Source of the DNA: Candidatus Omnitrophota bacterium
GTDB taxonomy: Bacteria > Omnitrophota > Gorgyraeia > Zapsychrales > Fredricksoniimonadaceae
Assembly (NCBI GenBank): GCA_903944345.1
Contig: CAJARJ010000002.1
Location: 1,969-65,968, forward strand
DNA length: 64,000 nt
Reading direction: 5' to 3'
Numbering within the stretch: position 1 is the stretch's first letter; each line of letters starts with the position of its first letter. Shown here piece after piece: positions 20,813 through 44,773 of this stretch. The notes under the pieces are model-generated. The model searched no databases. It was not told the origin of the DNA and saw only the letters and a program-made list of their open reading frames with translations. Made by a program: the position numbers and the translations under genes.

Positions 20813-20915
20813 AGCAATCACTCCATATTGCATATTTTATGCGCGATTATGGCACATACTGTCAGAATATGCAAGCAAACGCAACATGCCTTGTCGCCCT
20901 TTTATGCCACACACC

Positions 20916-25085: not shown

Positions 25086-25151
25086 GCGCAAAGTATGCCC
25101 GACAGATTCCAAGTTTTCAAGTGAAGGAATCTTCTGAACCTCAAAAAGGGC

Positions 25152-27656
25152 TTACCACCCTCCTCCGCCACCACCTCCGCCACCGCCGCCGCTGGAACCG
25201 CCACCACCAGTGCCAGAGCTGGAAGAAGGCGCGGATGAAGCTGAGCTGATCGAACTGCTCAACGAACTGCCCAGACCTGAAGCAAAAGCAACACCGCCTG
25301 CCGTTGTTAACAATGAACCGGAGTACCAGTGCGGGCGATAAGCACCCTCCCCCGCAGAGGCTCGCGCCAAAACCTCGGAAAAACCTTCCGCCCAGACCTG
25401 CTCGACGCCAAGGGCAAGCGCATACGGTAAATACTGCTCGAACAACTCAACACTTTCTTGTGGACGCCCCAACATCCGCAACCGATCCTTTTCGGCCACC
25501 GAAAGATACATCCGAAAACCTTCCACCTGGTCCATAATCCTGCGCCCCTGAAAAGTCGGCGCTCTGAGCAAATAATAAAAAAGCACATCCAGCCCGACTG
25601 CCATCAAAAGAACCAGCAGTACAATTGGCGAGGAGAACGCCACAAGTGTCAAGATTCCAAAAATTTCCCCCCCAAAAAACGGCAAAGAAAAAACCGAAAG
25701 CAACAAAGCTCCCGGCAGATGAACAGGATTACGCGCAACAGACTTCCATGCCTGGAACAACGCCGCTCCAAGCGCTGCAACACCCAAAGTCCAGATCGAA
25801 AGCCACAAACACATAAACAACACGACCGGTGGGCTTTTGGCATCAGTCAATACAGTTACGGCAATAACCGCAAAACAGAGACCCAGCCCAACACCAAAAA
25901 CACCCCGGTTGGTCACAAAATAATTCTTCTCCTGGGAGCGCGCGAGGGCACCCTGCAGACGGGAAATTCCTGAAGCAATAACGGCATGATTCCTCTGCAG
26001 AAGCTCAAGCCTGCCACGTCCTCTGAAAAACTCCGCAGCCAGAACTTTTTCCTCGGAAGAAAGGACATCCTCTGCCTTTCCGGTTCTGGCAAGAACAGAC
26101 GTCCCGTCAGCTTCCTCGCTGATCGTCAGATACCCCTTGACCGCCATACTGATCAAGGCACAGGCCGCGACCTGATTATCATATCCCATATTCATCAAAT
26201 ATCGCAAACCCGCCGGAGACAGGTCTTTGGGAGGATAGAACAGCGGAATAATAACCCCTTTTTCCGGATCTCGCCCGACACGATTCCAGGAAACAAGATA
26301 AAACAGAAGAAGGATAACAAGACCCATTCCGCCTGCCAGAAAACCCCGCCAGTCCCGCAAAAAATACATCAAACGCTGTTGCGGCGTAGGCCCCAGCACA
26401 ATTCCTTTGGGCCAACTGACCGCAATCGTCAAACCTTCATGCGCGAGCAGCGCACGGGTTGTCCTGAAAGTAATTCTGTTCTGCGCATCCATGCCTGTTT
26501 CGGCATCTTTGCCCCTCGCGCCTTCCAACCCCGTATAAACCGCCGTCTTCAAAACACGCTGCTGCGCCCTGGAAGGAAGCACAACCACCGCGGAAACCTG
26601 ATTCATGGCAAAATCCCAGCCATTACCGGTCACATTCCAGTACAATTCGTCATAATCTTCATAAAAACCGGTCTGGCGGTCCGTCCCGTAGGTAATAACA
26701 TATTCATGCTCCCCGACAGAGACGATCTCTTCTTTGGATCCCAGATAAGTCCTGAGGCCATTGGCCTGTTTTTTTTGATGATATTCTTCAGGCTGACCGT
26801 CGCGCATGACCTTGAGCACTTTAAAATCCACCAGCATCCGGCGCCCAGAAGCTGTTTTATACGACGTCGGGAAATCCCGGTAAATACCATGCCTGATCTG
26901 CTTGCCTTCGGCCAGCACGCGAATAGTCTCGGTCACCAGCATAGAACCATCAACACGAACAACAATATCGCTGTGAAATGCCAAGATACGTTCCTCGGCC
27001 AGCGAAGATCCAATCCCTAAAAACACAAACAGAGCGGCAATCCCACAAGCTGCCACACCCCCTCCCAAGCCCTGATTACCTGAAAGCCGAATCTCGGGAG
27101 CCGCACGCTCAAGGGCGCTCTCAATCTCAAAAAACTTTTCTGGCCTGAACCCGGCCACGGCAGCGACAAGATTCCCCGGAAAAGAACAAACTGCTGTATT
27201 AAATTCACGAACACTCCCGTTGTAATAACGCCGGGCCATCTGCAGCTCATCCTCGATTTTGATCAGCGATTCCTGTAAAGAAAGATAATGACTGTCAGCC
27301 TTCAGATCCGGGTAAGCTTCCGCCAGGGCAAGCAGTCCACGCAATCCCAGAGACAGACTGCTTTCCGCGACCACACGCCCCAGTGGCCCGGTTGTTGTTG
27401 CCTGTGCACGCAGTGCCGTCACGTCTTCAAGAAGATCGCGTTCATAAGCGGCATAATGTTTGACCACATTGACCAGATTGGGAACAAGATCATGCCGTCG
27501 TTTGAGCTGAACATCAATACCGCTGAGGGCTTCCTGCAGGCTACTGCGCAGTTTCACAAAACGGTTAAACAACATGACGGCATAACTGGCAACCAACGCA
27601 ATCACAAGAATAATGGCCATAAATATATTGAACCCTCCGGATAAAGATTTGTCCAA
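25152..27656 (-). CDS. LemA-family domain fused to DUF2207-type multi-pass membrane protein with Gly-rich C-terminal tail
   Basis: N-terminus matches the LemA family (TM helix + LRSSLQEALSGIDVQLKRRHDLVPNLVNVVKHYAAYE). A DUF2207-like extracellular domain follows (HGIYRDFPT...YEDYDELYWNVTG), then several TM helices, and a tail SSSSGTGGGGSSGGGGGGGGGGGW. Confidence 0.7.
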   Translation of the reverse strand: MDKSLSGGFNIFMAIILVIALVASYAVMLFNRFVKLRSSLQEALSGIDVQLKRRHDLVPNLVNVVKHYAAYERDLLEDVTALRAQATTTGPLGRVVAESSLSLGLRGLLALAEAYPDLKADSHYLSLQESLIKIEDELQMARRYYNGSVREFNTAVCSFPGNLVAAVAGFRPEKFFEIESALERAAPEIRLSGNQGLGGGVAACGIAALFVFLGIGSSLAEERILAFHSDIVVRVDGSMLVTETIRVLAEGKQIRHGIYRDFPTSYKTASGRRMLVDFKVLKVMRDGQPEEYHQKKQANGLRTYLGSKEEIVSVGEHEYVITYGTDRQTGFYEDYDELYWNVTGNGWDFAMNQVSAVVVLPSRAQQRVLKTAVYTGLEGARGKDAETGMDAQNRITFRTTRALLAHEGLTIAVSWPKGIVLGPTPQQRLMYFLRDWRGFLAGGMGLVILLLFYLVSWNRVGRDPEKGVIIPLFYPPKDLSPAGLRYLMNMGYDNQVAACALISMAVKGYLTISEEADGTSVLARTGKAEDVLSSEEKVLAAEFFRGRGRLELLQRNHAVIASGISRLQGALARSQEKNYFVTNRGVFGVGLGLCFAVIAVTVLTDAKSPPVVLFMCLWLSIWTLGVAALGAALFQAWKSVARNPVHLPGALLLSVFSLPFFGGEIFGILTLVAFSSPIVLLVLLMAVGLDVLFYYLLRAPTFQGRRIMDQVEGFRMYLSVAEKDRLRMLGRPQESVELFEQYLPYALALGVEQVWAEGFSEVLARASAGEGAYRPHWYSGSLLTTAGGVAFASGLGSSLSSSISSASSAPSSSSGTGGGGSSGGGGGGGGGGGW

Positions 27657-27683
27657 CTTACAAAGCTCAGGCCTGTCAATATG

Positions 27684-27724
27684 ATAAAAAACCGGTGGGC
27701 GGTTTTAATCGCGCCACCGGTCTT
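27684..27724 (-). terminator. Putative rho-independent terminator ending the fmt-dsbD-redoxin-Cys-rich operon
   Basis: Imperfect inverted repeat CCGGTGGGCG-gttttaat-CGCGCCACCGG. On the minus-strand transcript it is followed by UUUUUUAU, just past the stop at 27745. Confidence 0.45.
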
Positions 27725-27744
27725 TGCCATTCAATCAACTCATG

Positions 27745-27951
27745 CTATTGTTCTTTCTTCCCGGCACAGTCGCAAGCCTTCTGCTGACAGGAACACTTTG
27801 CGTCCTTCATGCAATCGCATTTGCTCTCCTGGCTGCACCCGCACGCACAAGGCATTCCGTTCTTAAGACAACAGGATTTGTCCTTGGCAAAGGCCACTCC
27901 CGAGGCAAGAACAAGCATCGCACACAGCACCGCCACAACTGATCTTTTCAT
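27745..27951 (-). CDS. Small secreted Cys-rich protein (68 aa; 22-aa signal peptide + 46-aa mature peptide with 12 Cys), metallothionein-like
   Basis: MKRSVVAVLCAMLVLASGVAFA | KDKSCCLKNGMPCACGCSQESKCDCMKDAKCSCQQKACDCAGKKEQ. AAGGAG RBS 7 nt upstream of the ATG. Confidence 0.6.
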   Translation of the reverse strand: MKRSVVAVLCAMLVLASGVAFAKDKSCCLKNGMPCACGCSQESKCDCMKDAKCSCQQKACDCAGKKEQ

Positions 27952-27992
27952 AACGAACTCCTTAATGTTATTAAATTATTCCGGAGTATTTT

Positions 27993-28283
27993 TTATGCGA
28001 TCTGCGGCGGCGGGCGAAAGATATCCTTCAAGGCCTCCCGGAAATAAAACGAATCGGCGACAATAAAACATTCTTTTGATAAAACAAGCCCCAACGCCGG
28101 ATTTTCTCCGGGAATATCGGCCAGAATTGGCGGGCAGGGCATCAGGGCCGCCTGACAGCCGCAATCAGAACCATCATGACAGCAACTGCAGGCGCAAGGA
28201 AGATTCTTCCTGTCGCCTTCAAAGCCAGAAACAGGACGTGGAAGAACTATCAATAAAACAAGCAAGAAAACCAGCCAACGCAT
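27993..28283 (-). CDS. Small secreted Cys-rich protein (96 aa) sharing a PCAC(S/G)C motif with 27745..27951
   Basis: Signal peptide MRWLVFLLVLLIVLPRPVSG followed by ...NLPCACSCCHDGSDCGCQAALMPCPP.... AGGA/GGTG upstream of the ATG. Confidence 0.5.
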   Translation of the reverse strand: MRWLVFLLVLLIVLPRPVSGFEGDRKNLPCACSCCHDGSDCGCQAALMPCPPILADIPGENPALGLVLSKECFIVADSFYFREALKDIFRPPPQIA

Positions 28284-28379
28284 TTTTCCTGAACACCTTT
28301 CTTCGTAACGAGAATATCATCCCGCCCGACAATAGCCAAGAAAAAAGCCGGATCAGGCCCTCATCCCTGATGAAACGGA

Positions 28380-28982
28380 TCAATATTTGACCGAACAACC
28401 ATAAGACTTGCCGGATTCGACTGTGACCGGATTCCCCGCCAGCAACTGATCAAGCACGGCCGCCGCGTAGTTACGCGCCAGTTTTAAATCCTCCGTCGAA
28501 GTACTCGGTCTGTCGTCAATGGCACCCTGGTAAACGAGCTTGCCGGCGGCATCAATGATAAAGATGTGCGGCGTGGTCTGAGCTCCATACAGACGGCCAA
28601 CCGCGCCATCGGCGTCCATCAGGGCTGCTGTACCAGCAAACCCTTCACTGGCCAGACGAACGGCCAAACCCGCGGGAGAATAATGTCCCTGCTTCCCGGG
28701 AGCCGAAGAATTAACCGACAACCAGACAACTCCTTTAGCCGTATAATCGGCCTGCCATTTCTGCATGGCTTTGGCATCATAAAATTTTCTAACAAAAGGA
28801 CATTCCGGATTGGTCCACTCAAGCAAAACAATCTTGCCTTTAAAAGAACCCAGAGGATAGGCTTCACCCTTGACATCGGTAAGAGTAAAATCCGGAGCCA
28901 TGTCTCCGGTAACAACCTGCGCCCAAGACGCCCCGACACATAAAACAAGCGCAACCCAAAAAAGAAAAAACGTTCTTAACAT
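28380..28982 (-). CDS. Periplasmic thioredoxin-fold redoxin (TlpA/AhpC-TSA-like) with atypical active site
   Basis: Signal peptide MLRTFFLFWVALVLCVGASWAQ. GKIVLLEWTNPECPFV sits at the usual WCxxC position but has a single Cys. A second Cys lies near the C-terminus (SYGCSVKY). Confidence 0.6.
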   Translation of the reverse strand: MLRTFFLFWVALVLCVGASWAQVVTGDMAPDFTLTDVKGEAYPLGSFKGKIVLLEWTNPECPFVRKFYDAKAMQKWQADYTAKGVVWLSVNSSAPGKQGHYSPAGLAVRLASEGFAGTAALMDADGAVGRLYGAQTTPHIFIIDAAGKLVYQGAIDDRPSTSTEDLKLARNYAAAVLDQLLAGNPVTVESGKSYGCSVKY

Positions 28983-29096
28983 GTTGTCCCCCTTAATTTT
29001 GTCTTTCTGCAGAAAAAATAAGTCGAATTTGTATCGAATCAAAAGCCAACAAAGTTTAGTCTTGGAAAACTTCTGATCCTTACCAAAAGAACGAAA

Positions 29097-31124
29097 CTAT
29101 TTCTGCAAAACATCCCGCAAAAAGGGCCGGGTCAGCAGTTCCGGCAAAAGCTGAGCCGAGTCACTGCCAGCGGCATAAAACACATACAAAGGAACCCCTG
29201 CCCGCCCGAAAGACTCCAGGGCCTGCGTAATGCGTTCATCACGGCTAGTCCAGTCGGCAATAAAAAGTGCCACATTCTCTTGTTTAAACAATGCCAATAT
29301 TGCCGGAGTTTTTAATACTGTCAGCTTGTTCACCTGGCAGGTCAGACACCAACTGGCAGTAAAATCGATAAAAACCGGACGACCCTCCAAACGGGCAGCC
29401 GCGACCGCCTCCGGATCATACGACTGCCAGACAATATCTTTCCCGCTCGAATCTCCCGGCAAAACAGCCAAACCGTACACCAGCGCCGCCGCAAATACCG
29501 CCAGGGCCAGCCACCGGCGGCCACGCCCAAAAAACCAGCAGGCCAAAGCCGCCGCAAGCAAAATCCCCAAAGCACTCACCAAAACCGACATGCCCGACTG
29601 CTCACCGAGGACAGATAACAGCCAGATCACGCAGCCCATAAGGACAAAACCCAACAGCTGTTTTAACGTCAGCATCCAGTTACCGGGACGGGGAACAAAA
29701 CGTAAACAAGCAGGAAAAACCGTCACCAAAGCCATCGGCAACGCCAGTCCAAGTCCAAGAAAAGTAAAAATGAGCAAACCCGCCATCGGCGGCTGAGTAA
29801 GGGCAAAGCCCAGGGCACTACCCATAAAAGGAGCCGTACAGGGCGTAGCCACGACTGTCATCAGTACGCCCGAAAGAAATGCCGAACCCTGAACCGGGAC
29901 AGAGGCTCCGACAACAAACTCGAAAACTCCGAACAAATTTAAAGCCAACACAAACAATAAAAGACTGATCAGCAGGACAAAAACCGGCGACTGGAACTGA
30001 AACCCCCACCCCAGGGAATGACCCGCGGCCTTGAGTAAAAACAACAATACCGCAAGAGCCCAGAAAGAAACCATAATGCCCAGCACATAAAAACCTGCCT
30101 GCACCAAAGCCCGGCGCTGATCGCTCTCTTTTCTGACCAACTGCAGAACCTTGAGAGAAAGAACCGGCAGAACACAAGGCATACCATTGAGAATGATCCC
30201 GCCAATAAAAGCCAAGAAACAGGCCAGCCACAAACCCGAAATGAATGCCGGAGTCGCGGATGCCACCGATGCGCTCACGGGGGCCTTGATCCTGACCGCC
30301 CTGGCTATCCCCCGGCTGTCCCAACCCCGCTCATGCACCAATATCCCTTCAATAAAATCCGGAGCTGATGTCTCCAACCCTGAACGCTCGACCAACAGTC
30401 GCGCCCGGTTTTGCGAACGGGTAAAAACCTGACCCGCTGCATGGCGAACCAGCCGATCCGAAAAAGGAAAGAACTCCACCCGGCCTTCCTGCCAGAACGG
30501 CAAACCAAGGTCAAGCCTCCATTTATCCGCTGAAACAGTTGCCCGCACATCAAGTTCAGGCAATTCAAACGGCCAGAGCAGACGCGTCTGCTCGAAAAGC
30601 GGTGCCTGCCCGGAAGGCCGGGGCGATTCCTGCGCAAGAGTCGGCGGCAAAACCAGGGACAATTCCGCTTCGCCCGGTAAACAATCCACCTGACAAGCAA
30701 GCCAGGAGACTTGAGCGCTGATCTGTACCGGAGCCGGATTCTGCGTTGCAGGGACAGTTACCGGCACAGCCAGCAATACTTCCCGCTCATAACCATAGGA
30801 CGCCAACGGTCCGGAAACAATGCGCTCTGGATACGGCCAGCGAACTTCTCCCGCCTGCCAGCCTTCGGGCAGCCGGAGCTCAATCGATGGCGCCAGCCCC
30901 GAGTCCCCGGGGTTGCGCCAATAAACATGCCAGCCATCGTCCATAACCATGCGCAGGCCCAGCCAGAGGGTTCCTCCGGCCGGCCAGGATTCATGTTCGG
31001 CCACCAGACTGACGCTCGTATGCGCAGAATAAACTTCAGCCCGAACAAAAGAAGCGGCCCCCAAAACCACTACTCCGGCCCAGAATATCCGACAGAAAAA
31101 CTGTTGAATGGAATACGCAAACAT
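29097..31124 (-). CDS. dsbD: Thiol:disulfide interchange protein DsbD (N-terminal periplasmic domain, CcdA-like TM core, C-terminal thioredoxin domain)
   Basis: DsbD-alpha-like N-domain. TM core with conserved Cys (MPCVLPVLSLK). C-terminal thioredoxin fold with WCLTC. Confidence 0.8.
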   Translation of the reverse strand: MFAYSIQQFFCRIFWAGVVVLGAASFVRAEVYSAHTSVSLVAEHESWPAGGTLWLGLRMVMDDGWHVYWRNPGDSGLAPSIELRLPEGWQAGEVRWPYPERIVSGPLASYGYEREVLLAVPVTVPATQNPAPVQISAQVSWLACQVDCLPGEAELSLVLPPTLAQESPRPSGQAPLFEQTRLLWPFELPELDVRATVSADKWRLDLGLPFWQEGRVEFFPFSDRLVRHAAGQVFTRSQNRARLLVERSGLETSAPDFIEGILVHERGWDSRGIARAVRIKAPVSASVASATPAFISGLWLACFLAFIGGIILNGMPCVLPVLSLKVLQLVRKESDQRRALVQAGFYVLGIMVSFWALAVLLFLLKAAGHSLGWGFQFQSPVFVLLISLLLFVLALNLFGVFEFVVGASVPVQGSAFLSGVLMTVVATPCTAPFMGSALGFALTQPPMAGLLIFTFLGLGLALPMALVTVFPACLRFVPRPGNWMLTLKQLLGFVLMGCVIWLLSVLGEQSGMSVLVSALGILLAAALACWFFGRGRRWLALAVFAAALVYGLAVLPGDSSGKDIVWQSYDPEAVAAARLEGRPVFIDFTASWCLTCQVNKLTVLKTPAILALFKQENVALFIADWTSRDERITQALESFGRAGVPLYVFYAAGSDSAQLLPELLTRPFLRDVLQK

Positions 31125-31165
31125 TGGTCTCCCTTCGAAGCGGCGAGCACCGCCTCAACACTACT

Positions 31166-32101
31166 TCAGGATTTCTCCAGCATATCGCCGACGACCAGTT
31201 TGTGCCCCGCCAGAAAAGCACGCGCGTCCATGGGCCTGGAACCGGCCGGATGAACCCGCCGGATCAGGACAGCCTGGTCGGCAGCACGGACGCAAAAACC
31301 TTCCTTGTGAAGGGCCACAATCTCGCCGGGGCGACCGGCTGCGGCCAGCGGCACCGGGGAGGCTTCCAAAACCTTGACCATATGTCCCCGCCAGAAAATA
31401 AACGCGCCCGGCCAGGGCTGCAGGCCGCGCACCAGATCATGAACGGCTCTGGCCGTGCTGTTCCAGTTAATACGCCCCAACTCTTTGTGCAACTTGGCCG
31501 CGTAGGTCGCCTGACTATGGTCCTGCGGGACGGGAACAATTTCTCCCGCCTTGATGCGGGGCAAAGTGCGCGATAAAAGTCCGGCTCCCATTTCGGCCAG
31601 CCGTACGCGCAGTTCCGCCGAAGTCATCTCAAGCGAAACAGCACAGGTTTCTAAAGCCAGTATGTCTCCCTCGTCCATTCCGGGCGACATCTGCATGATG
31701 GTCACTCCACTTTGGGTCTCTCCGTTAATAACCGCCCAATTGACCGGAGCCGCCCCTCGATACCTAGGCAAAAGGGACGCATGCACATTGATACACCGAT
31801 AGGACGGCAGATTAAGAATATCCACCGGAAGAATCTTGCCGTAAGCCACAACCACAAAAATATCCGCCCGGAAAGCCGCCAGGCGCTCAAGGACTGCCGG
31901 CTCCTTGAGAGTCAAGGGCTGAAAAACATCCACTCCGTGAGCGCCGGCCACCTGTTTGGTCGCCGAAAAAACCATATGCAAACCTCGCCCCTTGGGGCGA
32001 TCCGGCTGGGTCACCAGCCCGACCACCTTGTGCCCGTCATCGAGCAGACGCCCGAGACTGACTGCGGCAAAATCATCACAACCAAAAAAAAGAATTCTCA
32101 T
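31166..32101 (-). CDS. fmt: Methionyl-tRNA formyltransferase
   Basis: MRILFFGCDDFAAVSL...VVGLVTQPDRPKGRG. Formyltransferase N- and C-domains present. Confidence 0.9.
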   Translation of the reverse strand: MRILFFGCDDFAAVSLGRLLDDGHKVVGLVTQPDRPKGRGLHMVFSATKQVAGAHGVDVFQPLTLKEPAVLERLAAFRADIFVVVAYGKILPVDILNLPSYRCINVHASLLPRYRGAAPVNWAVINGETQSGVTIMQMSPGMDEGDILALETCAVSLEMTSAELRVRLAEMGAGLLSRTLPRIKAGEIVPVPQDHSQATYAAKLHKELGRINWNSTARAVHDLVRGLQPWPGAFIFWRGHMVKVLEASPVPLAAAGRPGEIVALHKEGFCVRAADQAVLIRRVHPAGSRPMDARAFLAGHKLVVGDMLEKS

Positions 32102-33768
32102 GGATCAACATTCACGGTCACAACCGTGTCCTTTTTTCCGCGAAATGTCCGCAGAACCAGCCGAACATGCCCCATCAAAACCTTGAGCGCTCCCCCCTGG
32201 ATGACCACGCACCAGCGATATTTACCACGAAGAACCGCGCTGCGATCCGGCTGAGGCTCCATAAGCACAAGCCCCGCGGGACAATCCTTCAGTAACATAT
32301 CATACAACCTTTTGGCTTCATCGCAAGCCAGCTGTGCGTCAGCGGAACGCGCGACCAGAGCCACAATATGACGAAACGGAGGAAACCCCATCTCCCGGCG
32401 CTGTTCCAGCTCTCCGGCGTAAAAAGGCAAAGGATCGTCAGCCGCTGCCAGCTGCAGGGTCGGATCGGCGGCATTGCGGGTCTGCACAAGCACTTCGGTT
32501 CTGGTCATGGCCCGCAAATATCTTATCAGGGAAAAGGCCGCGTGCGCCGCGCGATGATCCAGGCGATGGAATTCCCGGTCAATATCCAACACACAGGAAA
32601 AGTCAAAAACCAGACTGCTGCGAAAGCGAAACAAAGACTGGGTGGCGACCACAATATCGGCCGACCCCGGCCATTGAGCCGAGGATGAATCATATCCGGC
32701 CACACGCGCGTAAATAAACGCCTCTTTGATCTCCTGCATCACCGACGCAGTCCCGCGAGCGGCCTGGATATACAAAACCGCGCGCCCTTTGGCCTGCAGA
32801 ATCTTTTCGAGGGTTATCCTCAAAGGCAAAGACAATACGCTGCCCCGACGCATTTTGAAATTTCCAAGATCCATGAGACGCGCCGGTGCCAGTGAATCCG
32901 TAAAACGGATCATCCGCCCGTTCGGTAAAGAAGCCTCATGCCAGGCTTCGGCGGAAGGGGCCAAAGACACCATAGCCACGGTACAGCCTTCCAGCCGCGA
33001 ACGCAAAAAAACCGCTTCCCGGGCATGATAAAAAGGCGACTGGTCATGTTTGTAGGACTGACTTTCCTCATCGACAATTACAATCAGTCCCAGATCCGGG
33101 ACCGGAGTCAGCGCCGCAGAAATAAAACCTGCAGCCAGTCGCCGGCGTCCCCGGCAAAGGTCATCCCAGCGTCCGGCTTCCTGCTTCTGCGTTCCCCCCG
33201 CCATAACCAGAGGATCAAGACCATACCCGCGCAGGCGACCGAGAGTATCGTCAAGGTATCCGGCGTCGGGAACGAGCACCAGAACTCTTTGTCCGGACTT
33301 CAGTGTCTGTCCGATCTTCTCCAGCAATACCGGCCAGCACTTGCGCAAACGATCATCAAAATACAACTCCACCGCCCCGCGTACGTTCCGGGATGCCTGG
33401 ATCCGCAAAGCCGGTAACGCGCCGGCAGGAGCCAGACGTTTACGCGGAAGGCGCCAGTAACCGGGAAGAAAAAGCTCCAAAGCCTCGCCCAGAGAACACC
33501 CAAAACGCAGGGCAAACACTTCCGCCAGACGCAAGGCGTGCGGCGGAAGGGACGGATCCTCATCAAGAACAGCCAAAAGAGGCTTCAACTCCGGAAAGTC
33601 GCTGCTCCCGGCCAGGGAGACAACAATCCCCACTTTTTTACGGCCGGCAAAAGAAACCAGCACCCGGACTCCGGGAGATACGCAAGACCTGTAACTGTCG
33701 GGAACAGAATAGTCAAACGGGGTCTCAACAGGGATACCGAAAGCAACTCGGGCAATACAGCTGGACAT
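32098..33768 (-). CDS. PriA-like primosomal protein N' homolog with degenerate helicase motifs (putative pseudo-helicase)
   Basis: Collinear with PriA: an N-terminal 3'-DNA-binding domain (VAFGIPVETPFDYSVP), LVLVPDAGYL, LIVIVDEESQSYKHDQSPFYHAREA, and a C-terminal LRGKYRWCVVIQ. It lacks GSGKT (Walker A), has DEES instead of DEEH, lacks the Cys4 zinc-binding insert, and has no QxxGRxGR. Confidence 0.6.
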   Translation of the reverse strand: MSSCIARVAFGIPVETPFDYSVPDSYRSCVSPGVRVLVSFAGRKKVGIVVSLAGSSDFPELKPLLAVLDEDPSLPPHALRLAEVFALRFGCSLGEALELFLPGYWRLPRKRLAPAGALPALRIQASRNVRGAVELYFDDRLRKCWPVLLEKIGQTLKSGQRVLVLVPDAGYLDDTLGRLRGYGLDPLVMAGGTQKQEAGRWDDLCRGRRRLAAGFISAALTPVPDLGLIVIVDEESQSYKHDQSPFYHAREAVFLRSRLEGCTVAMVSLAPSAEAWHEASLPNGRMIRFTDSLAPARLMDLGNFKMRRGSVLSLPLRITLEKILQAKGRAVLYIQAARGTASVMQEIKEAFIYARVAGYDSSSAQWPGSADIVVATQSLFRFRSSLVFDFSCVLDIDREFHRLDHRAAHAAFSLIRYLRAMTRTEVLVQTRNAADPTLQLAAADDPLPFYAGELEQRREMGFPPFRHIVALVARSADAQLACDEAKRLYDMLLKDCPAGLVLMEPQPDRSAVLRGKYRWCVVIQGGALKVLMGHVRLVLRTFRGKKDTVVTVNVDP

Positions 33769-33774
33769 AGACTC

Positions 33775-34905
33775 TCAGGAGAGGTTACGGATAATATCTT
33801 CGACAGAACGCGGCCGGGCGAGCGCGGCACAGGCGGAACGGGCAGCGGCAAGCCGTTCCGGCGAGGAGGCCAGAGCATGAATTTCTGCCGCAATATCCGA
33901 CAAAGACTGCCCGCTCGAACCTATCTTGTAACGTTCCAACACAGCAACATTACCGGCTTCCTGACCGGGAATTGCGCTGAAGAATATCATCGGGAGGCTC
34001 GCGGACAATGCTTCGGTGATCGAAAGACCGCCGGGCTTGGTCACCATGACATCGGTCGCCGCCAGCATCTCTTCCATATTGCTGACAAAACCGCACACCT
34101 TGTGTAAAGGGTTTTTTCGCGCGGCAATCTTTTCGGCCAAAGCCTTGTTGTTGCCACAAATAAGTATGAGCTGAACATCCTTGAGCAGTTCTGCCAATTC
34201 ATCGATAGGGCCAAAGCCGAAGGAACTGGTGGAAACAAGCGCGGTAAAAGCCTCCGGACGCAGGCCGAGCTTGCGCCGGATGTCCTGTTTGTCACGCGGA
34301 ACCAGAAACTTTTCATCCACCGGAATACCGGTCACCCGCACACGCTGCGGATCAACCCCCAGCGCGACCAGCCGTTCACGGGTATATTCACAAGCTACCA
34401 GATAAAGATCCACGCCAGCTGAAAGCCAGATACGGTGCACATCGTAATCCGTAACAATCGTCACCAGCCGGGAACGCAATTTTCCGGTCTGGCGCAAATG
34501 TCCGCAGACTTCCGTGGCAAAAAAATGCGTGGAAACAATAACGTCAAATTCCCCTTCTGTCACCAAGCGCACCAAAGGCCCGGCATTCAGCGCATTATAA
34601 ACACGCCTCACCGAACAAAAAACCGGGCTAAACCACGCCTGGTCGGAAAGCTCGAAGAACTTCTCCCATAAACCGGGCAATTTGCCGACCATATAAGCAT
34701 AGAAGGAAGCATACGTGGCCCGAAACAGGCAAGAAGAATGATCCAAAGCATCTTCCAGCCTGGCCGTGCCAACAACAGACCCGCGCGCCTGGAAACCATG
34801 ATATACCGCCTCAGCGGCTTTGCGGTGACCGGCGCCCGCGCTTGCGTGCAGGATGAGGATCTTCGGCGAGGATAAGGTCGACTGCGTCATAGAGGTCCTC
34901 CACAA
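33775..34905 (-). CDS. GT28-family glycosyltransferase (MGDG synthase / UgtP / MurG-like)
   Basis: ILILHASAGAGHRKAAEAV N-terminus and a GT-B C-terminal half are typical of the monogalactosyldiacylglycerol synthase family. The start may lie downstream; the ORF overlaps gmhB by about 80-95 nt. Confidence 0.65.
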   Translation of the reverse strand: MWRTSMTQSTLSSPKILILHASAGAGHRKAAEAVYHGFQARGSVVGTARLEDALDHSSCLFRATYASFYAYMVGKLPGLWEKFFELSDQAWFSPVFCSVRRVYNALNAGPLVRLVTEGEFDVIVSTHFFATEVCGHLRQTGKLRSRLVTIVTDYDVHRIWLSAGVDLYLVACEYTRERLVALGVDPQRVRVTGIPVDEKFLVPRDKQDIRRKLGLRPEAFTALVSTSSFGFGPIDELAELLKDVQLILICGNNKALAEKIAARKNPLHKVCGFVSNMEEMLAATDVMVTKPGGLSITEALSASLPMIFFSAIPGQEAGNVAVLERYKIGSSGQSLSDIAAEIHALASSPERLAAARSACAALARPRSVEDIIRNLS

Positions 34906-35410
34906 TAAAATCCGGACGAATATCCCAGCGTTTCATGTACTGCTGGTCTTCCCGACCGGAAAGCACAAAAACCGTTTTACAGCCGGCATTCTTTCCGGCC
35001 TTGATATCCCCTTGGGTATCTCCGACAAAATAAGTATGGCCGGCATCGTCAATGCTGTGGTCGATCGATTCCAGAGCCTTGATAACATTGCCGATCCGGG
35101 GTTTACGGCAATTGCAGGCATCGTTCGACTTGCAAGTGCAATACAACACCTCTTCAATACGGCCGCCGGCTTCGCCGACATTCCGAAGCATATACGCCGT
35201 AATCTGCTCCAGTTTCTCCCGGGAGTAAACCCCCTTGCCCACACCGGCCTGATTGGAAACCACAAAGATATGATAGCCGGCATCCGTCAAACGACGCAAG
35301 GCCTCCAGCGACCGGGGAATAAAATGAAAATCCCTGATCTTGGTCACATAAAGCCCGTTTCCGGGAAATTCGTTGATAACCCCGTCTCTGTCGAGAAAAA
35401 CAACTTTCAT
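34811..35410 (-). CDS. gmhB: D-glycero-D-manno-heptose 1,7-bisphosphate phosphatase (HAD family, histidinol-phosphatase-like)
   Basis: MKVVFLDRDGVIN...VVSNQ...CxCRKP motif string. Start codon at 35408-35410. Confidence 0.75.
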   Translation of the reverse strand: MKVVFLDRDGVINEFPGNGLYVTKIRDFHFIPRSLEALRRLTDAGYHIFVVSNQAGVGKGVYSREKLEQITAYMLRNVGEAGGRIEEVLYCTCKSNDACNCRKPRIGNVIKALESIDHSIDDAGHTYFVGDTQGDIKAGKNAGCKTVFVLSGREDQQYMKRWDIRPDFIVEDLYDAVDLILAEDPHPARKRGRRSPQSR

Positions 35411-35417
35411 ACCAGCC

Positions 35418-36239
35418 TTACCAGCTGCGCGAACCGGGTGTACCGGGCTCGTCGCCTTTGTGTGTGCCAGCCGCATGCGCTGCCGGGTTTTGTACAAGCT
35501 CGTAATATTTCGCATAACTGACAATCTGATACAGCCCGGAAAACACCGCCAGCATAAAACCGGGAAACCCGTCTTTGTAACCGCGCTTGCCGATATAATA
35601 TCGGAAGAAACGATCGATAGTACGCCATAGGGCCGTTCCCAAGGTCATTTTGCGTCCGGTCTCCACCCACTTGCGGGCCTCCATCGAGGTTTGTCCGTTC
35701 ATTTTCGAAATAAAATGCGAGAAATCGCGATAGCTATAATGAAGGATATCGCCCTTGAGGGTACGGGTCTTCCCCTCCATAAAAACGCGCGGGTGAACCC
35801 CCACTTCCTCGTATTTGAAACGATCCTTGCGAAAAAGCCGCAACTGGGCCGAAGGATACTGCCCTCCGTGTCGAAGCCAGATCGTTCCAATAAAATTCCG
35901 GCGCGGCAAATTGTATCCGGCCATGTCGGTCTCTGTCCCGAGTGTCCGGTCGATTTCCTTGCGCAGCTCGGGCGTCATTCTCTCGTCGGCATCCAGGCTG
36001 AGCACCCAGTTGTGCGTGGCACGGGCATAGGCCCAGTTGCGATGCCGGCCCTCATTATCCATCCGACGTTCAAAAACGCGGCTGGTAAAACCGCGTGCGA
36101 TCTCCACGGTACGATCGCTCGAACCATCGTCAACCACCACGACCTCGTCCGCCCAGGCGCGCACGCTGGACAGGCACGGTTCAATATTTTTCTCTTCGTT
36201 GCGGGTGATCACAACAACTGTCAGCGGAGGCCTGGGCAT
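35418..36239 (-). CDS. GT2-family glycosyltransferase (LPS core WaaE/KdtX-like)
   Basis: VVVITRNEEKNIEPCL...VVVDDGSSDRT...SLDADE matches the GT2 DXD architecture. Confidence 0.75.
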   Translation of the reverse strand: MPRPPLTVVVITRNEEKNIEPCLSSVRAWADEVVVVDDGSSDRTVEIARGFTSRVFERRMDNEGRHRNWAYARATHNWVLSLDADERMTPELRKEIDRTLGTETDMAGYNLPRRNFIGTIWLRHGGQYPSAQLRLFRKDRFKYEEVGVHPRVFMEGKTRTLKGDILHYSYRDFSHFISKMNGQTSMEARKWVETGRKMTLGTALWRTIDRFFRYYIGKRGYKDGFPGFMLAVFSGLYQIVSYAKYYELVQNPAAHAAGTHKGDEPGTPGSRSW

Positions 36240-37336
36240 CAGACAAGCTCCTTGAGCGCCCCGGTAACTTCCAGCACCTGGGCTTCCGTCATATGAGGAA
36301 ATAACGGCAGGGAAAGAATATCCGCAGCCACCGCCTCAGCCACCGGGAAAGCACCGGCGGCGCAGCCGGCATCCCGATAGGCTTCCTGCAAATGAATCGG
36401 GATCGGATAATGAATAAGTGAAGCGATACCACGGGTTTTGAGTCCTTCCATAACCCGCTCCCGCTCCTTGAGGCGGATCGCAAAGGTCTGATAAACATGA
36501 TCGCGGTCCGCCGCCTGCTGCGGCAACGCCACCGCGGCGCCCCGCAGTTCGCGGGCATAAATCGCAGCCACGTCACGGCGCATGGCGTTCCATTCGTCAA
36601 GATGCCTGAGCTTGGCGGAAAGCACTACCGCCTGCAAAGTGTCCAGCCGGGAATTAAACCCCTTCACGCGATGAGAATACCGGTCAGTGCGCCCGTAATC
36701 GCGCAACATGCTGACCGTCTGGTAAACCTTATCATCATTGGTGACCAGCATGCCGCCGTCTCCCCAACCACCCAGACCTTTGGTGGGATAAAAACTGAAA
36801 CATCCCGCACGCCCCATAGAACCGCTGCGCTGGGCCTTGTAACGGGCTCCATGCGCCTGGCAGGCGTCCTCGACAACAGCCACCCCGTGCTTGCCGGCGA
36901 TCTGACAAATCTGTTGCATATGGGCCATCTGCCCGTACAAATGCACCGGAATAACCGCCCGTGTTCTGGGGGTGATCGCCCGGGCAAACTTGTCGGGATC
37001 AATATTATAAGTTTCCTGCTCGATATCCACAAAACGCACCGTGGCCCCGGTATCGGAAACACACAAAGCAGTAGCAATAAACGTATGTGTCGGCAGAATC
37101 ACCTCGTCGCCGGGACCAATCCCCAGCGCTGCCAGGGCAAAATAAAGCGCGTCCGTCCCCGAATTAACACCTGCGGCATATTTGACTCCGCAAAAAGCGG
37201 CAAATTCGTCTTCAAATTTTTTGACATCCGGACCCATAATAAAAGCGGACTTCTCGATCACACGTTTAAAACCGGCGTCAACCTCGGCCTGTATAGCCTG
37301 GTTCTGCCGGGAAAAATCAATAAACGGCACGCTCAT
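36239..37336 (-). CDS. DegT/DnrJ/EryC1/StrS-family PLP-dependent sugar aminotransferase
   Basis: N-terminus FIDFSRQNQAIQAEVDAGFKRVIEKSAFIMGPDVKKFEDEFAAFCG, plus the fold-type I Lys region. Confidence 0.85.
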   Translation of the reverse strand: MSVPFIDFSRQNQAIQAEVDAGFKRVIEKSAFIMGPDVKKFEDEFAAFCGVKYAAGVNSGTDALYFALAALGIGPGDEVILPTHTFIATALCVSDTGATVRFVDIEQETYNIDPDKFARAITPRTRAVIPVHLYGQMAHMQQICQIAGKHGVAVVEDACQAHGARYKAQRSGSMGRAGCFSFYPTKGLGGWGDGGMLVTNDDKVYQTVSMLRDYGRTDRYSHRVKGFNSRLDTLQAVVLSAKLRHLDEWNAMRRDVAAIYARELRGAAVALPQQAADRDHVYQTFAIRLKERERVMEGLKTRGIASLIHYPIPIHLQEAYRDAGCAAGAFPVAEAVAADILSLPLFPHMTEAQVLEVTGALKELV

Positions 37337-38415
37337 AACAACTCCTTCAGCTGATTAAATAACTCGTCAACTTCAAGCAGACGAAGACAACTCAAATGCC
37401 GGCAGTCAGACATTCTGAAACGCCGGTAACAGGGCTGACAAGGCATTTTTTTCTGCACCACCGTATGTCCTGCGGCAGGAAATGGCCCGTAGACAACCGG
37501 ATCTACCGGACCAAACACGGAAACCGTTCGCGCCCCGCAAGCAACCGCAACGTGTAACGGGCCGCCGTCATTGGCCAGAACAAAACGAGAGTGACGCATG
37601 ACTGCGGCGGACTGAAGAACCGAAGTCAGGCCTGCCGCGTTGACAGCCGGAAATTTCATTGCTCCGGCCACCGCGGCACAAAGCTCTTTTTCGCCACAAT
37701 CACCCATCAGTATAATGGCCAGAGAGCTTTTTTCAACGACTTTGTCCGCCAGTTTGGCATATTCCCGGGCAGGCCAGCGTTTCTGAAAAGCACCCTGTCC
37801 CCAGCTGGCTCCTCCGCCCGGATAAACCGCAATAAACCTTCCGGGCTGCAAATGATGTTCCCGCATGAGGCCCCGGGCAAATTCCTCATCTTCTGTCGAC
37901 GGAAAAACCCGCATGGGCCAAGCTTCCTGCTCCGGCACCGTGCGCAAAAAACCCGCATGCTGCAACAAGTCCAGAGCATACTCCGCCACATGCCTCCCCT
38001 CGTAACCTTTAAAGGGAATCCTGTCAGTCAGCCAGCGCCCCCGGCCTTTATAATCGTAACCGATCCGCCGGGGGATACCGGCCAGAAACAAGGCCAGCGA
38101 CACCGGAGAACCCAGGGAACAGTCAAACGCCAGCTCAAATTTCCTGGCGCGGATTTCCTCAAGCAGCGCCTGCCAGCGCCGTAGAAACTGCCAGGGCGAG
38201 CGTCGATAAAGCGCCACAAACTCGTCGCGCTCGTAACGGAAAACACAGCTGATCCGCGGATCTGCGCGTAACAGCGGCTCGGTACGCGCATTGCCAAGAT
38301 AGCCGATGGACATGTCGGGACCATGCGCTTTTAACGCCGCGATCAGCGGTGTGGTAAAAAGCATATCCCCGATACCAAAAGGATTAACGATCAGAACGCG
38401 CGACAAGGTCGGCAT
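37333..38415 (-). CDS. ADP-heptose:LPS heptosyltransferase (GT9)
   Basis: VLIVNPFGIGDMLFTTPLIAAL and C-terminal LANDGGPLHVAVACGARTVSVFGP are GT9 hallmarks. Start MPTLSRV at 38415. Confidence 0.8.
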   Translation of the reverse strand: MPTLSRVLIVNPFGIGDMLFTTPLIAALKAHGPDMSIGYLGNARTEPLLRADPRISCVFRYERDEFVALYRRSPWQFLRRWQALLEEIRARKFELAFDCSLGSPVSLALFLAGIPRRIGYDYKGRGRWLTDRIPFKGYEGRHVAEYALDLLQHAGFLRTVPEQEAWPMRVFPSTEDEEFARGLMREHHLQPGRFIAVYPGGGASWGQGAFQKRWPAREYAKLADKVVEKSSLAIILMGDCGEKELCAAVAGAMKFPAVNAAGLTSVLQSAAVMRHSRFVLANDGGPLHVAVACGARTVSVFGPVDPVVYGPFPAAGHTVVQKKMPCQPCYRRFRMSDCRHLSCLRLLEVDELFNQLKELL

Positions 38416-39544
38416 AAATCCCCAGAGTTTCTTTGGCCATTGTTTCCCAGGAAAAATCACGGGCACGCAACAGGCCTTTTTCGATATAGGTGTCCCGTTC
38501 GGGAGAATTTCCCAGAAACAGGCCAACCGCCCGGGCAATCCCTTCCACATCATAGGGGTCAACCAGCACCGCCCCTTCTGCTGCATATTCCGGGATAGCT
38601 CCCCGGTCACTGGCCACCACCGGAACACCGTTGACAAACGCGTCCAGAATCGCCATCGGCACACCCGAATAAAACGGGGTCACCACTGACGCCGCTGCAT
38701 TGGCCTGGATCACCTGAAACACCCGGTCGGACACAAAGCCGGCGGCAATCACCTTGTCGCGAATTCCCAGCATGGACATTTTACGCAAAAGCCGGTCGTA
38801 ATGCCCTTCGGAACGAAACGTATTTCCGGTAAAAACAAAATACACATCCTGCTCCAGCTGACGATGCACCCGGGCAAACGCCTCCAGAAGCAGATCCGGA
38901 TTACGACGGCTGTGATCAAGCCCGGAAACCGCCAGGACATAACGACGCCCCTCCAGATGATATTTGGCCAGAATCTGCTGCTCTTCCCGCGGAGACATGG
39001 CCGTCTTAAGGTCGTTGTCGCAACCGACAGGCGTCACAGCTATTCTTCCTCCCGGCAACCGCCACTCCCGGGCCGCCTGGGCGCGAACGGAATCCGAAAG
39101 CGCGATGATCTTTGCCTCAGAACGGGACCAGAGCCATTGATCTGTCCGTCCACGCAATTCCTTCCAAAGGCTCTGCGGCGTCCTGCGTCCGCGGAAAAAA
39201 GGCAACTCAAAGATAGTAAGCACCGCCGGGCAAGGTGAACGAAAAAACGGCAGGAAGGACCGGATCGGGGCATGAAAGATATCGATCCCGTGCCGTGAAA
39301 GCAGCCGCGGCAAAACGCGTGCCGGCCAGGCATTGCGACGCGCTTTGCCAGGTCGCTCCACTACCCTGGTCACACGGGGTGAATTAATATAGGGTTCATA
39401 ATCTACACAAACCTTGTCCGGAGAAAACAAAAACACTTCCAGAGAGGCATCCTCAAGCAAAAGATGCTCCACCAGCCGGGACAAATAATGGGATTCAGCC
39501 GTCTTGCCTTCAGTCAACACCTGGGCGTCAAAACCTATACGCAT
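38384..39544 (-). CDS. GT4-family (GT-B, RfaG-like) glycosyltransferase
   Basis: MRIGFDAQVL start. C-terminal GT1 domain with an E..E-like motif (VVTPFYSGVPMAILDAFVNGVPVVASD). Paralogous to 41500..42663. Confidence 0.75.
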   Translation of the reverse strand: MRIGFDAQVLTEGKTAESHYLSRLVEHLLLEDASLEVFLFSPDKVCVDYEPYINSPRVTRVVERPGKARRNAWPARVLPRLLSRHGIDIFHAPIRSFLPFFRSPCPAVLTIFELPFFRGRRTPQSLWKELRGRTDQWLWSRSEAKIIALSDSVRAQAAREWRLPGGRIAVTPVGCDNDLKTAMSPREEQQILAKYHLEGRRYVLAVSGLDHSRRNPDLLLEAFARVHRQLEQDVYFVFTGNTFRSEGHYDRLLRKMSMLGIRDKVIAAGFVSDRVFQVIQANAAASVVTPFYSGVPMAILDAFVNGVPVVASDRGAIPEYAAEGAVLVDPYDVEGIARAVGLFLGNSPERDTYIEKGLLRARDFSWETMAKETLGIYADLVARSDR

Positions 39545-39716
39545 ATGATCTCCATGAATCCGGGTTAAAAACGATGCCCCTTGAGATGAAACCACCAATA
39601 AATGCCAAACAGGCGGATAATAAACCACGGCTCATATTTCGAACGATAAAACCAGAGCGGTGCTGCCAAAGAAAACCGGGATTCCAGTCCCCGCGTGATA
39701 TGCCAGATCTGAAGGG

Positions 39717-40592
39717 TCATTTATGCCCTCCTGCAATACGTAATAGCGTTTCCATCCGATGACGGTAGGTGTGCCTTGCATTGACCAGTTCCCAGCCCGC
39801 CCGCGCAAGGCTCTCGCTTTCCAGCGAAGCTACCAGCGCCCGGTCAATAACAGACTTGAGCTCTTTAGTCGTAATATCGTCAAACACCAGGCAATCTTTG
39901 CCCGGAGTAAAAAGCTCTTCAAATCCGTTATTTCTGATCCGGCTGGTCACAACCAGAGCGCCCGCCCCCATGGCCTCGAACGTCCTCATATTGATATCAT
40001 TGTTAATCGAATAATTAACAGTCAAACGTGACTGTGCGTAAATCCCGGGTAACTCTTCGCGTGGCGCGGTTCCCACAAAAGAATCGGGATACTCCGAGCG
40101 AATAAGCTCCAGCGCCACCTTGCGCAGACTGAATTTCCCGGTCGTTCCGACAAAAGCAATATCCCGACGGCGCTGCGCGAAAGGAACAAACAACGGCAAA
40201 GGAACGCTATAATCCGCCGCAGCCGGCAGCCAGTGCACCGGACGATTGAGCAGCCGCGATAGCCTTTCGCTCCCGTCTTTCTGGAAACAAAACAGATAAT
40301 CTGTCGCGCGGGCATTTGTCACAATATTGTTGAACGAATGTTTCAGGTGCGTATCGGCCACCCACCAGGCAAAAGGATGCAAATGTTCCAGCCCGCCCAG
40401 AGCATAATCACCGTCGTCCAGTCGCAGGTAAAGATCAAACCCGCCGCGCAAAGACGCGGCCGCACGCACATCAAAACATTCAAAAGTGATCCCGGGAAAT
40501 CCCGCAAGAACGCGAGCGCAACGTTCCCCGATCCCCACACGACAACCGGGATTAAAAATAAGCGCCAGCTTCATGCCAACCGGGCCTTCCAC
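39717..40592 (-). CDS. Putative glycosyltransferase (GT-B C-terminal domain, CgeB/DUF3880-like)
   Basis: C-terminal half (NMRTFEAMGAGALVVTS...LVFDD) resembles a GT1 C-domain. N-terminal half is unassigned. Confidence 0.45.
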   Translation of the reverse strand: MEGPVGMKLALIFNPGCRVGIGERCARVLAGFPGITFECFDVRAAASLRGGFDLYLRLDDGDYALGGLEHLHPFAWWVADTHLKHSFNNIVTNARATDYLFCFQKDGSERLSRLLNRPVHWLPAAADYSVPLPLFVPFAQRRRDIAFVGTTGKFSLRKVALELIRSEYPDSFVGTAPREELPGIYAQSRLTVNYSINNDINMRTFEAMGAGALVVTSRIRNNGFEELFTPGKDCLVFDDITTKELKSVIDRALVASLESESLARAGWELVNARHTYRHRMETLLRIAGGHK

Positions 40593-43454: not shown

Positions 43455-44092
43455 GGCCGTTGCAATACAATCAATCCGTTAGCTGCTTTGGTATACGGGA
43501 CATCCCTGAGCTCATCAATTGAAACCTGATGCCAGGCATTGTCTCTGGCGCCCGCGCTGCGGCGAAGACATCCAACCGAAACCCCCTCGAAAGCCTTCCA
43601 GTTGTCAGCTATGAACCGATCCAGGTTTCTGTTATATCCTGTCGGGATTGTGACCAAAAAAGACTGTGCCTCAAGCAACAACTTCCTGACTGCAAGAGCC
43701 GAAGCGTCAGGCTTGCTCTCAAGACTATATTCTCCTGTGCCAATATGCTCAAACGTTGAAATCGAAAGGATCTTTTTCCCGTAAAAAGAAATGTCAAACA
43801 TTGATTTCCTGATACTGACCCCGGAATGTTGATCTGTCGGATCAACAACATCAGCAATCCGCGCAGGCCAGTAATACGGAGTGACCGCCCCAATCTCCAT
43901 TACATCCCTGTCGCTTTCATGTCGGGACAGCCATGCATCCGCAAGAGCCATCTCCACCGACCTTTCGGTCATACGATAGGGCGGCCAGCCACAGTTAGTC
44001 TGATGAACAAAATGAAGATATTCTTTACCGTCAAAAGTAAACTTTAAACGATTTTCCCACCACTGAACTTGTTTGGGGCTGAGGAATAACAT
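43451..44092 (-). CDS. Hypothetical protein, possibly Rossmann/methyltransferase-like; start taken at internal Met 44092 to avoid overlap with next gene
   Basis: ORF with weak MTase-like strings (VMEIGAVTPYYWP, ILSISTFEHIG). No firm family assignment. Confidence 0.35.
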   Translation of the reverse strand: MLFLSPKQVQWWENRLKFTFDGKEYLHFVHQTNCGWPPYRMTERSVEMALADAWLSRHESDRDVMEIGAVTPYYWPARIADVVDPTDQHSGVSIRKSMFDISFYGKKILSISTFEHIGTGEYSLESKPDASALAVRKLLLEAQSFLVTIPTGYNRNLDRFIADNWKAFEGVSVGCLRRSAGARDNAWHQVSIDELRDVPYTKAANGLIVLQRP

Positions 44093-44769: not shown

Positions 44770-44773
44770 ACGC

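Follow-up and report, generated by a model that had tools for sequence, protein, structure and literature searches.

Can a PriA protein that has lost every catalytic motif of its helicase still be the PriA of its organism? The question is raised by a 64,000-nucleotide stretch of DNA from a Candidatus Omnitrophota bacterium (contig CAJARJ010000002.1 of GenBank assembly GCA_903944345.1, positions 1,969 to 65,968 of the forward strand; hereafter the window, taken at its full length), in which a minus-strand open reading frame (ORF) at 32098..33768 encodes a 556-aa PriA-like protein next to fmt. PriA restarts replication forks that have broken down. Its helicase motifs are almost always conserved, with Deinococcus-Thermus as the single documented exception (PMC4504706). 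A preliminary description of the window had called the gene a candidate pseudo-helicase and had left two options for it, either an ATPase-dead paralog or the organism's only PriA with altered function. We propose that it is probably the organism's PriA ortholog turned pseudo-helicase, a protein that would act as a passive platform at replication forks and recruit the replicative helicase DnaB.

The ORF opens with an ATG codon 6 nt past the stop of an upstream glycosyltransferase gene and runs for 556 codons with no internal stop. At its 3' end, the stop codon and the start codon of fmt overlap as ATGA; the gene is translationally coupled to fmt and shares an operon with it. Pfam recognizes a PriA 3'-DNA-binding domain (3'BD; PriA_3primeBD, PF17764) at residues 7-102 (E 7e-21, profile positions 1-96 of 96) and a PriA C-terminal domain (CTD; PriA_C, PF18074) at residues 464-556 (E 1.3e-7, 32.8 bits against a cut-off of 26.9, profile positions 1-95 of 95), and the same scan, carried to E<=1, gave no match to DEAD, ResIII, Helicase_C or the PriA zinc-ribbon (PF18319). 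All NCBIfam PriA equivalogs match the protein, each far under its own cut-off: TIGR00595, the best of them relative to its cut-off, gave 161.9 bits against 230.35, and the PRK05580 models scored 80-185 against cut-offs of 763-1249. A phmmer search of PDB sequences matched the protein to PriA of E. coli and of Klebsiella (E ~3e-29) along three stretches in collinear order (5-104, 148-340 and 367-534), with its first helicase lobe aligned to residues 234-430 of E. coli PriA.

An AlphaFold2 model built from a 71-sequence alignment is confident (predicted local distance difference test [pLDDT] 94.5, predicted template modeling score 0.92), the sole low-confidence part being the linker at residues 111-130 (pLDDT 67-75). 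The top nine Foldseek matches of this model in the PDB are all PriA, led by fork-bound E. coli PriA (8FAK chain H; E 2.9e-41, template modeling score [TM] 0.88) and a winged-helix-deletion PriA (6DCR chain A; TM 0.84), and the next family is Mfd (E 2e-11, TM 0.37). In the model, the two RecA-like lobes of a superfamily 2 helicase are retained as a fold. The preliminary description had taken the product to be collinear with PriA, had placed the string GKYRWCVVIQ in its CTD and had suggested AlphaFold modeling; the domains, the three collinear stretches and the structural match agree with the first of these, the string lies at residues 515-524, and the modeling, read for fold, confidence and secondary structure, returned a PriA fold.

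The helicase motifs were compared in a MAFFT alignment of 122 sequences, comprising the window protein, E. coli PriA (NC_000913.3) and 120 database relatives. Walker A of E. coli PriA (GVTGSGKT, G224-T231) falls without gaps opposite D138-W145, where the local text reads F137-DDRLRKCW and none of the Gly, Lys and Thr positions is retained. The motif had been described as missing, which is borne out, but the string offered in its place, RIQASRNVRGAVELYFDD, for the most part sits a little upstream of the true site. At Walker B, E. coli D320-E321-E322-H323 stands opposite V232-D233-E234-E235, again without gaps and in a register anchored by LGLIVI upstream and SYK downstream. The Mg-coordinating Asp has become a hydrophobic residue (Ile, Leu or Val in the family) and the His is lost as well. 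The earlier reading of DEES for DEEH was correct in that DEES is present at residues 233-236, but it was one residue out of register, and the Asp is gone too.

The remaining motifs are no better preserved. Motif III changes from GSATP to SLAPS, motif V from TQMLAKG to TQSLFRF, and motif VI from QVAGRAGR to YL-----RAMTR with a 5-residue gap, in keeping with the RYLRAMTR that had been read there as a missing motif VI. A clean deletion of ~61 columns, spanning E. coli residues ~427-487, has removed motif IV (NRRGF) together with the entire Cys-rich region and fuses ...LYIQ to AARGT..., the latter corresponding to the canonical G-x-G-T-E helix. Ten Cys residues remain in the protein without a single CxxC pair, and the reported absence of a Cys-rich zinc-binding insert therefore stands. 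The LTxAQ (LTxxQ) segment before Walker A is kept in canonical Omnitrophota PriAs and is absent only in the degenerate forms. The winged-helix domain is also absent; because canonical Omnitrophota PriAs likewise lack it in the alignment, its absence is not part of the degeneration. Alignment to PriA sequences had been named as a potential refuter of the pseudo-helicase proposal, and it recovered no intact Walker A/B, zinc-finger or motif VI.

From these losses we infer that the protein can neither bind nor hydrolyze ATP, and hence would neither translocate along DNA nor unwind it. A residual NTPase activity at a non-canonical nucleotide site could be argued from the acidic D233-E234-E235 kept next to the former Walker B strand, and from a proposal that E. 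coli PriA has a second, weak nucleotide site (PMC5778457). We regard such an activity as very unlikely, as the P-loop is gone in all of its parts (Gly-rich loop, Lys and Thr/Ser), the arginines of motif VI are missing, Ile, Leu or Val stands in place of the Walker B Asp, and the alignment contains no Q-motif-like segment in the window protein. In E. coli PriA, the single substitution K230R already abolishes ATPase activity (PMC4504706, PMC5778457).

Motif loss on this scale, together with the label of 'hypothetical protein' that relatives carry from the Prokaryotic Genome Annotation Pipeline (PGAP), might also be the mark of a decaying pseudogene, or of an assembly or frameshift artifact. Selection on the gene was measured as the ratio of nonsynonymous to synonymous substitution (dN/dS) against the gene for P0001 (locus L006; 91% amino-acid identity). 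The ratio for the whole gene is 0.089, compared with 0.045 for the flanking fmt and 0.118 for dsbD, and its most constrained part is the second helicase lobe, at 0.027 (other regions are given in the table below). Across 40 tier-1 sequences, the closest class of relatives defined below, conservation in the two dead lobes matches that in the DNA-binding ends, and new invariant residues have arisen in the former P-loop: F137, D138, R144 and W145, of which R144 is a Cys in the window gene and its closest relative. The gene is under strong purifying selection similar to that on its housekeeping neighbors, with no decay. Because ~40 homologs at 38-91% identity are as long as it is (546-599 aa) and can be aligned with it from the first residue, no frameshift hides the motifs, which had been a further way in which the proposal might have failed. 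An intact ORF of conserved length, low dN/dS, a confident model (pLDDT 94.5) and translational coupling to fmt together refute the pseudogene and frameshift explanations, to which we give practically no credence. The designation as a candidate pseudo-helicase is upheld by the multiple alignment, the model, the purifying selection and the family-wide motif census that follows.

Relatives of the protein were sorted into tiers. Tier 1 (P0001-P0043) holds proteins of ~550 aa that are 38-91% identical to the window protein and match only 3'BD and CTD in Pfam; those with names are 'hypothetical protein' entries (PGAP) from metagenome-assembled genomes (MAGs) of Candidatus Omnitrophica or Omnitrophota, with one labeled Elusimicrobia. 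Tier 2 (P0044-P0056) holds proteins of ~615 aa at 27-36% identity, again with 3'BD and CTD, some with zinc-ribbon or DEAD matches; one of them, P0055, comes from an Omnitrophota MAG and carries the annotation PriA. From P0057 onward the relatives are canonical PriAs of various phyla, 650-830 aa long, with lower identity and the full helicase domain set. Walker A, DExH, motif III and motif VI are found in 0/43 tier-1 and 0/13 tier-2 clusters, whereas each is present in 61-64 of the 64 canonical PriAs of other phyla; among the canonical Omnitrophota PriAs, GKT stands in the alignment of all 120 clusters. A conserved Trp replaces the Walker A Thr in both degenerate tiers. The tiers differ in the zinc domain: no CxxC pair occurs in 42/43 tier-1 clusters, while at least three occur in all 13 tier-2 clusters and in 64/64 canonical PriAs of other phyla. 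Tier 2 keeps four CxxC pairs and motif IV (NRxGF), both of which tier 1 has deleted. In a neighbor-joining (NJ) tree, tier 1 forms a single clade inside a paraphyletic tier 2, and the two share a long common stem. The simplest history is that of two losses within Omnitrophota, the ATP motifs first and the Cys-rich region later. Two further loci were considered as intermediates and rejected (L035, 583-2445; L036, 4791-6653), being ordinary metagenome PriAs with Walker A GVPASGKT, Walker B DEEQ and motif VI. DEEQ is also seen in a few canonical Omnitrophota PriAs; the DExH box may have undergone a separate, mild drift in such proteins. In the literature, including a 2026 complete-genome preprint, we found no mention of PriA in Omnitrophota or Omnitrophica.

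Gene order bears on whether the gene is an ortholog or an additional copy. In the window, the order is DegT, glycosyltransferase family 2, GmhB-like phosphatase, MGDG-synthase-like glycosyltransferase, the PriA-like gene and fmt. This order recurs at a tier-1 locus on a 423-kb contig (P0007), at the tier-2 loci of P0055 (GCA_030692045.1) and P0054, and in ~20 further metagenome loci with enough flanking sequence. Wherever a related locus extends far enough, fmt lies downstream of the PriA-like gene in essentially all cases, mostly immediately so, and in tier-2 loci fmt is followed by GalT, GalT, GAPDH, (YggT), PGK, TIM and SecG. The closest short canonical PriA, P0063, has all motifs and the Cys-rich region; its own 119 closest relatives are canonical, every named one being labeled Omnitrophica or Omnitrophota. 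Its locus reads priA, (TPR), def, fmt, GalT, GalT, GAPDH, PGK, TIM, SecG. Depending on the Omnitrophota lineage, the place next to fmt is thus taken by a canonical or a degenerate gene, and the genes that follow downstream are the same in both cases; the two forms look like alternative states of one locus. Between one tier-2 locus and the canonical locus, identity is 68% for GAPDH, 63% and 59% for the two GalT proteins, 57% for PGK and 50% for TIM, compared with 35% for PriA and 39% for fmt; these values suggest that PriA evolved faster after the loss of its motifs.

The def gene lies between priA and fmt in the canonical Omnitrophota loci (L009/L010) only and is missing from every locus with a degenerate PriA (L002, L004, L011-L031). 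Six-frame translation of the window contains neither an EGCLS nor an HExDH motif, and Pfam scans of ~40 window ORFs found no deformylase. The gene adjoins fmt with no def between them, as had been described. At the P0007 locus, a DUF1016/YhcG-type nuclease gene stands between the degenerate priA and fmt and breaks their tight coupling (L002 11688-12767; L003 3680-4735).

The gene could, on the other hand, be an extra, non-catalytic paralog in a genome where a canonical priA elsewhere carries out replication restart. Canonical PriAs do exist in the phylum, and our search for a second PriA spanned the window and the flanks of related loci. Within that range, six-frame translation of the window revealed no second GVTGSGKT or DEEH, and no second PriA was found within +/-8-10 kb in ~30 related loci. 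The priA gene is normally single-copy. Because the matching site next to def-fmt is where other Omnitrophota carry their canonical priA, followed by the same genes downstream, an ortholog is favored over a paralog, which we consider quite unlikely; the gene looks like an ortholog that was degraded in two steps. Of the two options in the preliminary description, gene order thus favors the organism's own PriA with altered function and disfavors the paralog.

If the gene is the organism's PriA, its function may be read from the elements that remain, namely those with which canonical PriA contacts DNA. In the 3'BD, F18-D19-Y20 aligns to F16-D17-Y18 of E. coli, and D19 is invariant in 40/40 tier-1 and 13/13 tier-2 sequences; its counterpart D17 is important for binding the nascent leading strand's 3' end (PMC5175346). 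In the first lobe, the aromatic-rich loop (Y239-K240...P245-F246-Y247-H248-A249-R250, opposite E. coli Y327-R338) keeps K, Y, H and R residues that are conserved across tier 1, tier 2 and canonical PriAs. In E. coli, this loop is inserted as a wedge at the fork junction (PMC10175261), with which it forms crosslinks (PMC5175346). The CTD carries the motif R-G-K-Y/F-R, with R514, G515, K516 and R518 invariant in tier 1.

We propose that abandoned forks or D-loops would be recognized by their structure. The 3'BD would capture the nascent leading strand's 3' end, the aromatic-rich loop of lobe 1 would sit at the fork junction, and the arms of the DNA, and possibly also the single-stranded DNA-binding protein (SSB), would be bound by the CTD together with the inert lobes. 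The protein would thereby serve as a passive landing platform, to which DnaB could be recruited directly or through the loader of this lineage. The product of dnaB, which lies in the window, is presumed to be the client reloaded with the help of PriA, by analogy with the binding of DnaB by Deinococcus radiodurans PriA (PMC4504706). In E. coli, the Cys-rich region forms a pore for single-stranded DNA (ssDNA), bears the hairpin that acts as unwinding wedge and docks PriB (PMC10175261). Without that region, the protein would have no closed ssDNA pore, no wedge and no PriB dock of the E. coli kind, and for this reason its action would be expected to be confined to forks with an already single-stranded lagging-strand template.

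The role of passive platform is drawn from two precedents. In D. radiodurans, PriA is inactive as an ATPase and as a helicase but still binds to DnaB, to forks and to ssDNA (Lopper, Boone & Morrow 2015, PMC4504706). Like the window protein, it is a PriA ortholog that has lost its ATPase motifs and is nevertheless conserved, and the window protein appears from its motifs to fit the definition of a pseudohelicase given there, a protein evolved from the PriA helicase without the residues for ATP hydrolysis (PMC4504706). The two differ in extent. Deinococcus-Thermus PriAs, which we compared by description only, have a Lys-to-Arg change in Walker A and poor matches to Walker A/B, whereas in the window protein the P-loop is unrecognizable, motif VI is deleted, motifs III-V are degenerate and LTxxQ is gone; tier 1 has, in addition, excised the Cys-rich zinc domain together with motif IV. 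The window protein also lies outside the Deinococcus-Thermus clade, its relatives and gene order being those of Omnitrophota, in the PVC group. Since the named relatives are Omnitrophota (with one Elusimicrobia label) and the gene order is also that of Omnitrophota, the loss of the motor in this phylum is independent of that in Deinococcus-Thermus, and it is more extreme.

The second precedent is E. coli PriA K230R (priA300), which is dead as an ATPase, helicase and translocase but near wild type in vivo and in PriA-PriB restart assays; together with other helicase-dead E. coli alleles, which likewise allow restart through PriA-PriB and almost normal growth, it demonstrates that a motor-less PriA can work as an assembly platform (PMC5778457). 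Alleles of the priA300 type, being engineered point mutants, still have the Cys-rich region and depend on PriB and DnaT, in contrast to the window protein, which is natural, long-evolved and without the Cys-rich region. To our knowledge, PriB and DnaT are not to be expected in its lineage. With canonical PriA (TIGR00595/PRK05580; PDB 4NL4, 6DGD and 8FAK), the window protein shares the fold, the 3'BD, the aromatic-rich loop, the CTD and the position beside fmt; it differs in having no Walker A/B, no motifs III, IV and VI, no winged-helix domain and none of the Cys-rich region that binds two zinc ions in canonical PriA (CxxC x4; PF18319). The tier-2 Omnitrophota proteins are orthologous to it: they stand in the same neighborhood and, like it, are without Walker A, DExH, motif III and motif VI.

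It could be held instead that the PriA scaffold has been re-purposed, and that the protein is a structure-specific DNA binder with another job, such as fork protection or the recruitment of another helicase or a nuclease. Both of the modules that pass the fork on in E. coli, the Cys-rich region (with its pore and PriB dock) and the motor, are lost (PMC10175261); F137, D138, W145, N303-F304-K305 and D395/D397/E399 are invariant in a lineage-specific manner; and PriA, having evolved faster than its neighbors, is only 35% identical between a tier-2 and a canonical locus, against 50-68% for GalT, GAPDH, PGK and TIM. The elements retained are, however, exactly those that read a replication fork, and the closest precedent, D. 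radiodurans PriA, keeps its binding to DnaB (PMC4504706). We therefore consider re-purposing unlikely and hold to the role of fork platform.

Several points weigh against that role or against orthology. The E. coli Cys-rich region is needed for PriB docking and for normal primosome assembly (PMC5778457, PMC10175261), and there is no experimentally validated route by which a PriA without this region hands over to DnaB. The Arg that contacts the SSB tail (R697 in the numbering of 4NL8) falls opposite L528, at a position that is variable even among canonical PriAs. With the second-priA search covering the window and the flanks of related loci, a canonical copy elsewhere in the genome is possible. 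The NJ tree places the degenerate clade away from the canonical Omnitrophota PriAs; this is probably a long-branch effect, and because the placement is unreliable, the argument for orthology rests on gene order.

That PriA can work without its motor and that a PriA can be a pseudohelicase are already established; what is new here is the extremity of the loss and the survival of an intermediate. We lean modestly toward the view that Omnitrophota record a natural, two-step minimization of PriA at one locus, from the canonical form to a motor-dead form with the zinc domain and then to a motor-dead form without it. The loss of the motor before the Cys-rich region fits the view that this region serves mainly for unwinding and PriB docking. 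With the intermediate state still alive in sister lineages, these genomes would offer a natural dissection of PriA, in which constraint stays strong on the 3'-end pocket, the fork-junction loop, the RecA-lobe scaffold and the CTD. Should the tier-1 form prove to be the sole PriA of its hosts, the conserved core of PriA would be a passive scaffold for fork recognition, made up of the 3'BD, the CTD and the RecA lobes in inert form; a PriA that no longer unwinds DNA could do without the pore and wedge of the Cys-rich region and its dock for PriB; and this would be the first bacterial clade whose PriA has no Cys-rich region. These compact proteins could be used to test how PriA recruits DnaB without PriB, DnaT or a motor. 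There is also a consequence for annotation, as proteins that fall under NCBIfam cut-offs and are labeled 'hypothetical protein' in tier 1 can make genomes seem to have no priA.

Table 1. Coordinates in the window of the PriA-like gene, its parts and the associated genes.
Feature	Coordinates	Strand	Basis and remarks
Candidate pseudo-helicase PriA gene, complete	32098..33768	-	556 aa plus stop; ORF list, Pfam, model, dN/dS
3'-DNA-binding domain, residues 1-105	33454..33768	-	PF17764; dN/dS 0.108
F18-D19-Y20 pocket motif	33709..33717	-	Aligns to E. coli F16-D17-Y18
Variable linker, residues 106-132	33373..33453	-	pLDDT 67-75; dN/dS 0.53; at the site of the canonical winged-helix domain and/or LTxxQ segment
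RecA-like lobe 1 without ATP-binding motifs, residues 133-290	32899..33372	-	Beta/alpha pattern kept; dN/dS 0.091
Former Walker A, F137-W145	33334..33360	-	Alignment
Former Walker B, V232-S236	33061..33075	-	Alignment
Aromatic-rich loop, Y239-R250	33019..33054	-	Aligns to E. coli Y327-R338
RecA-like lobe 2 without motifs IV and VI and the Cys-rich insert, residues 291-460	32389..32898	-	dN/dS 0.027
Deletion junction, Y333-I334-Q335/A336-A337-R338-G339	32752..32772	-	Alignment
Former motif VI, F412-T424	32497..32535	-	Alignment, 5-residue gap
PriA C-terminal domain, residues 461-556, with R514-G515-K516-Y517-R518-W519	32101..32388	-	PF18074; dN/dS 0.064
fmt (methionyl-tRNA formyltransferase), downstream, translationally coupled	31166..32101	-	Pfam Formyl_trans_N and Formyl_trans_C; ATGA overlap
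MGDG-synthase-like glycosyltransferase, conserved upstream neighbor	33775..34905	-	Pfam MGDG_synth, E 5.5e-25
dnaB (replicative helicase), unlinked	11506..12843	-	DnaB_C E 4.7e-113; DnaB N-terminal domain E 4e-32

Other features of the window were recorded alongside. The longest ORF for BamA (GTG at 11789; region 8964..12843, minus strand) overlaps the 3' end of dnaB by ~280 nt; bamA itself probably starts at a more downstream site, and dnaB is intact. LpxC (residues 3-273) and a FabZ/FabA-like dehydratase (residues 305-428) are fused in a single ORF at 6030..7337 on the minus strand, which belongs to a lipid A cluster of lpxI-lpxA-lpxC/fabZ-lpxD-bamA at 4381..11789. Three very large minus-strand ORFs of 1214, 899 and 1398 aa (683..4327, 18134..20833 and 20916..25112) gave no Pfam match at E<=1e-5, and at locus L006 the region after the LemA/DUF2207 gene has a homolog, a likewise unannotated ORF of 738 aa. 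From ~33.8 to 58 kb, the window is a single long block of sugar-nucleotide, glycosyltransferase and lipopolysaccharide-core genes. In 1..64000, the minus strand carries almost all credible genes, and every 2-kb bin has a negative GC skew (cumulative -4.5), from which the whole window seems to be part of one replichore with its genes co-oriented.

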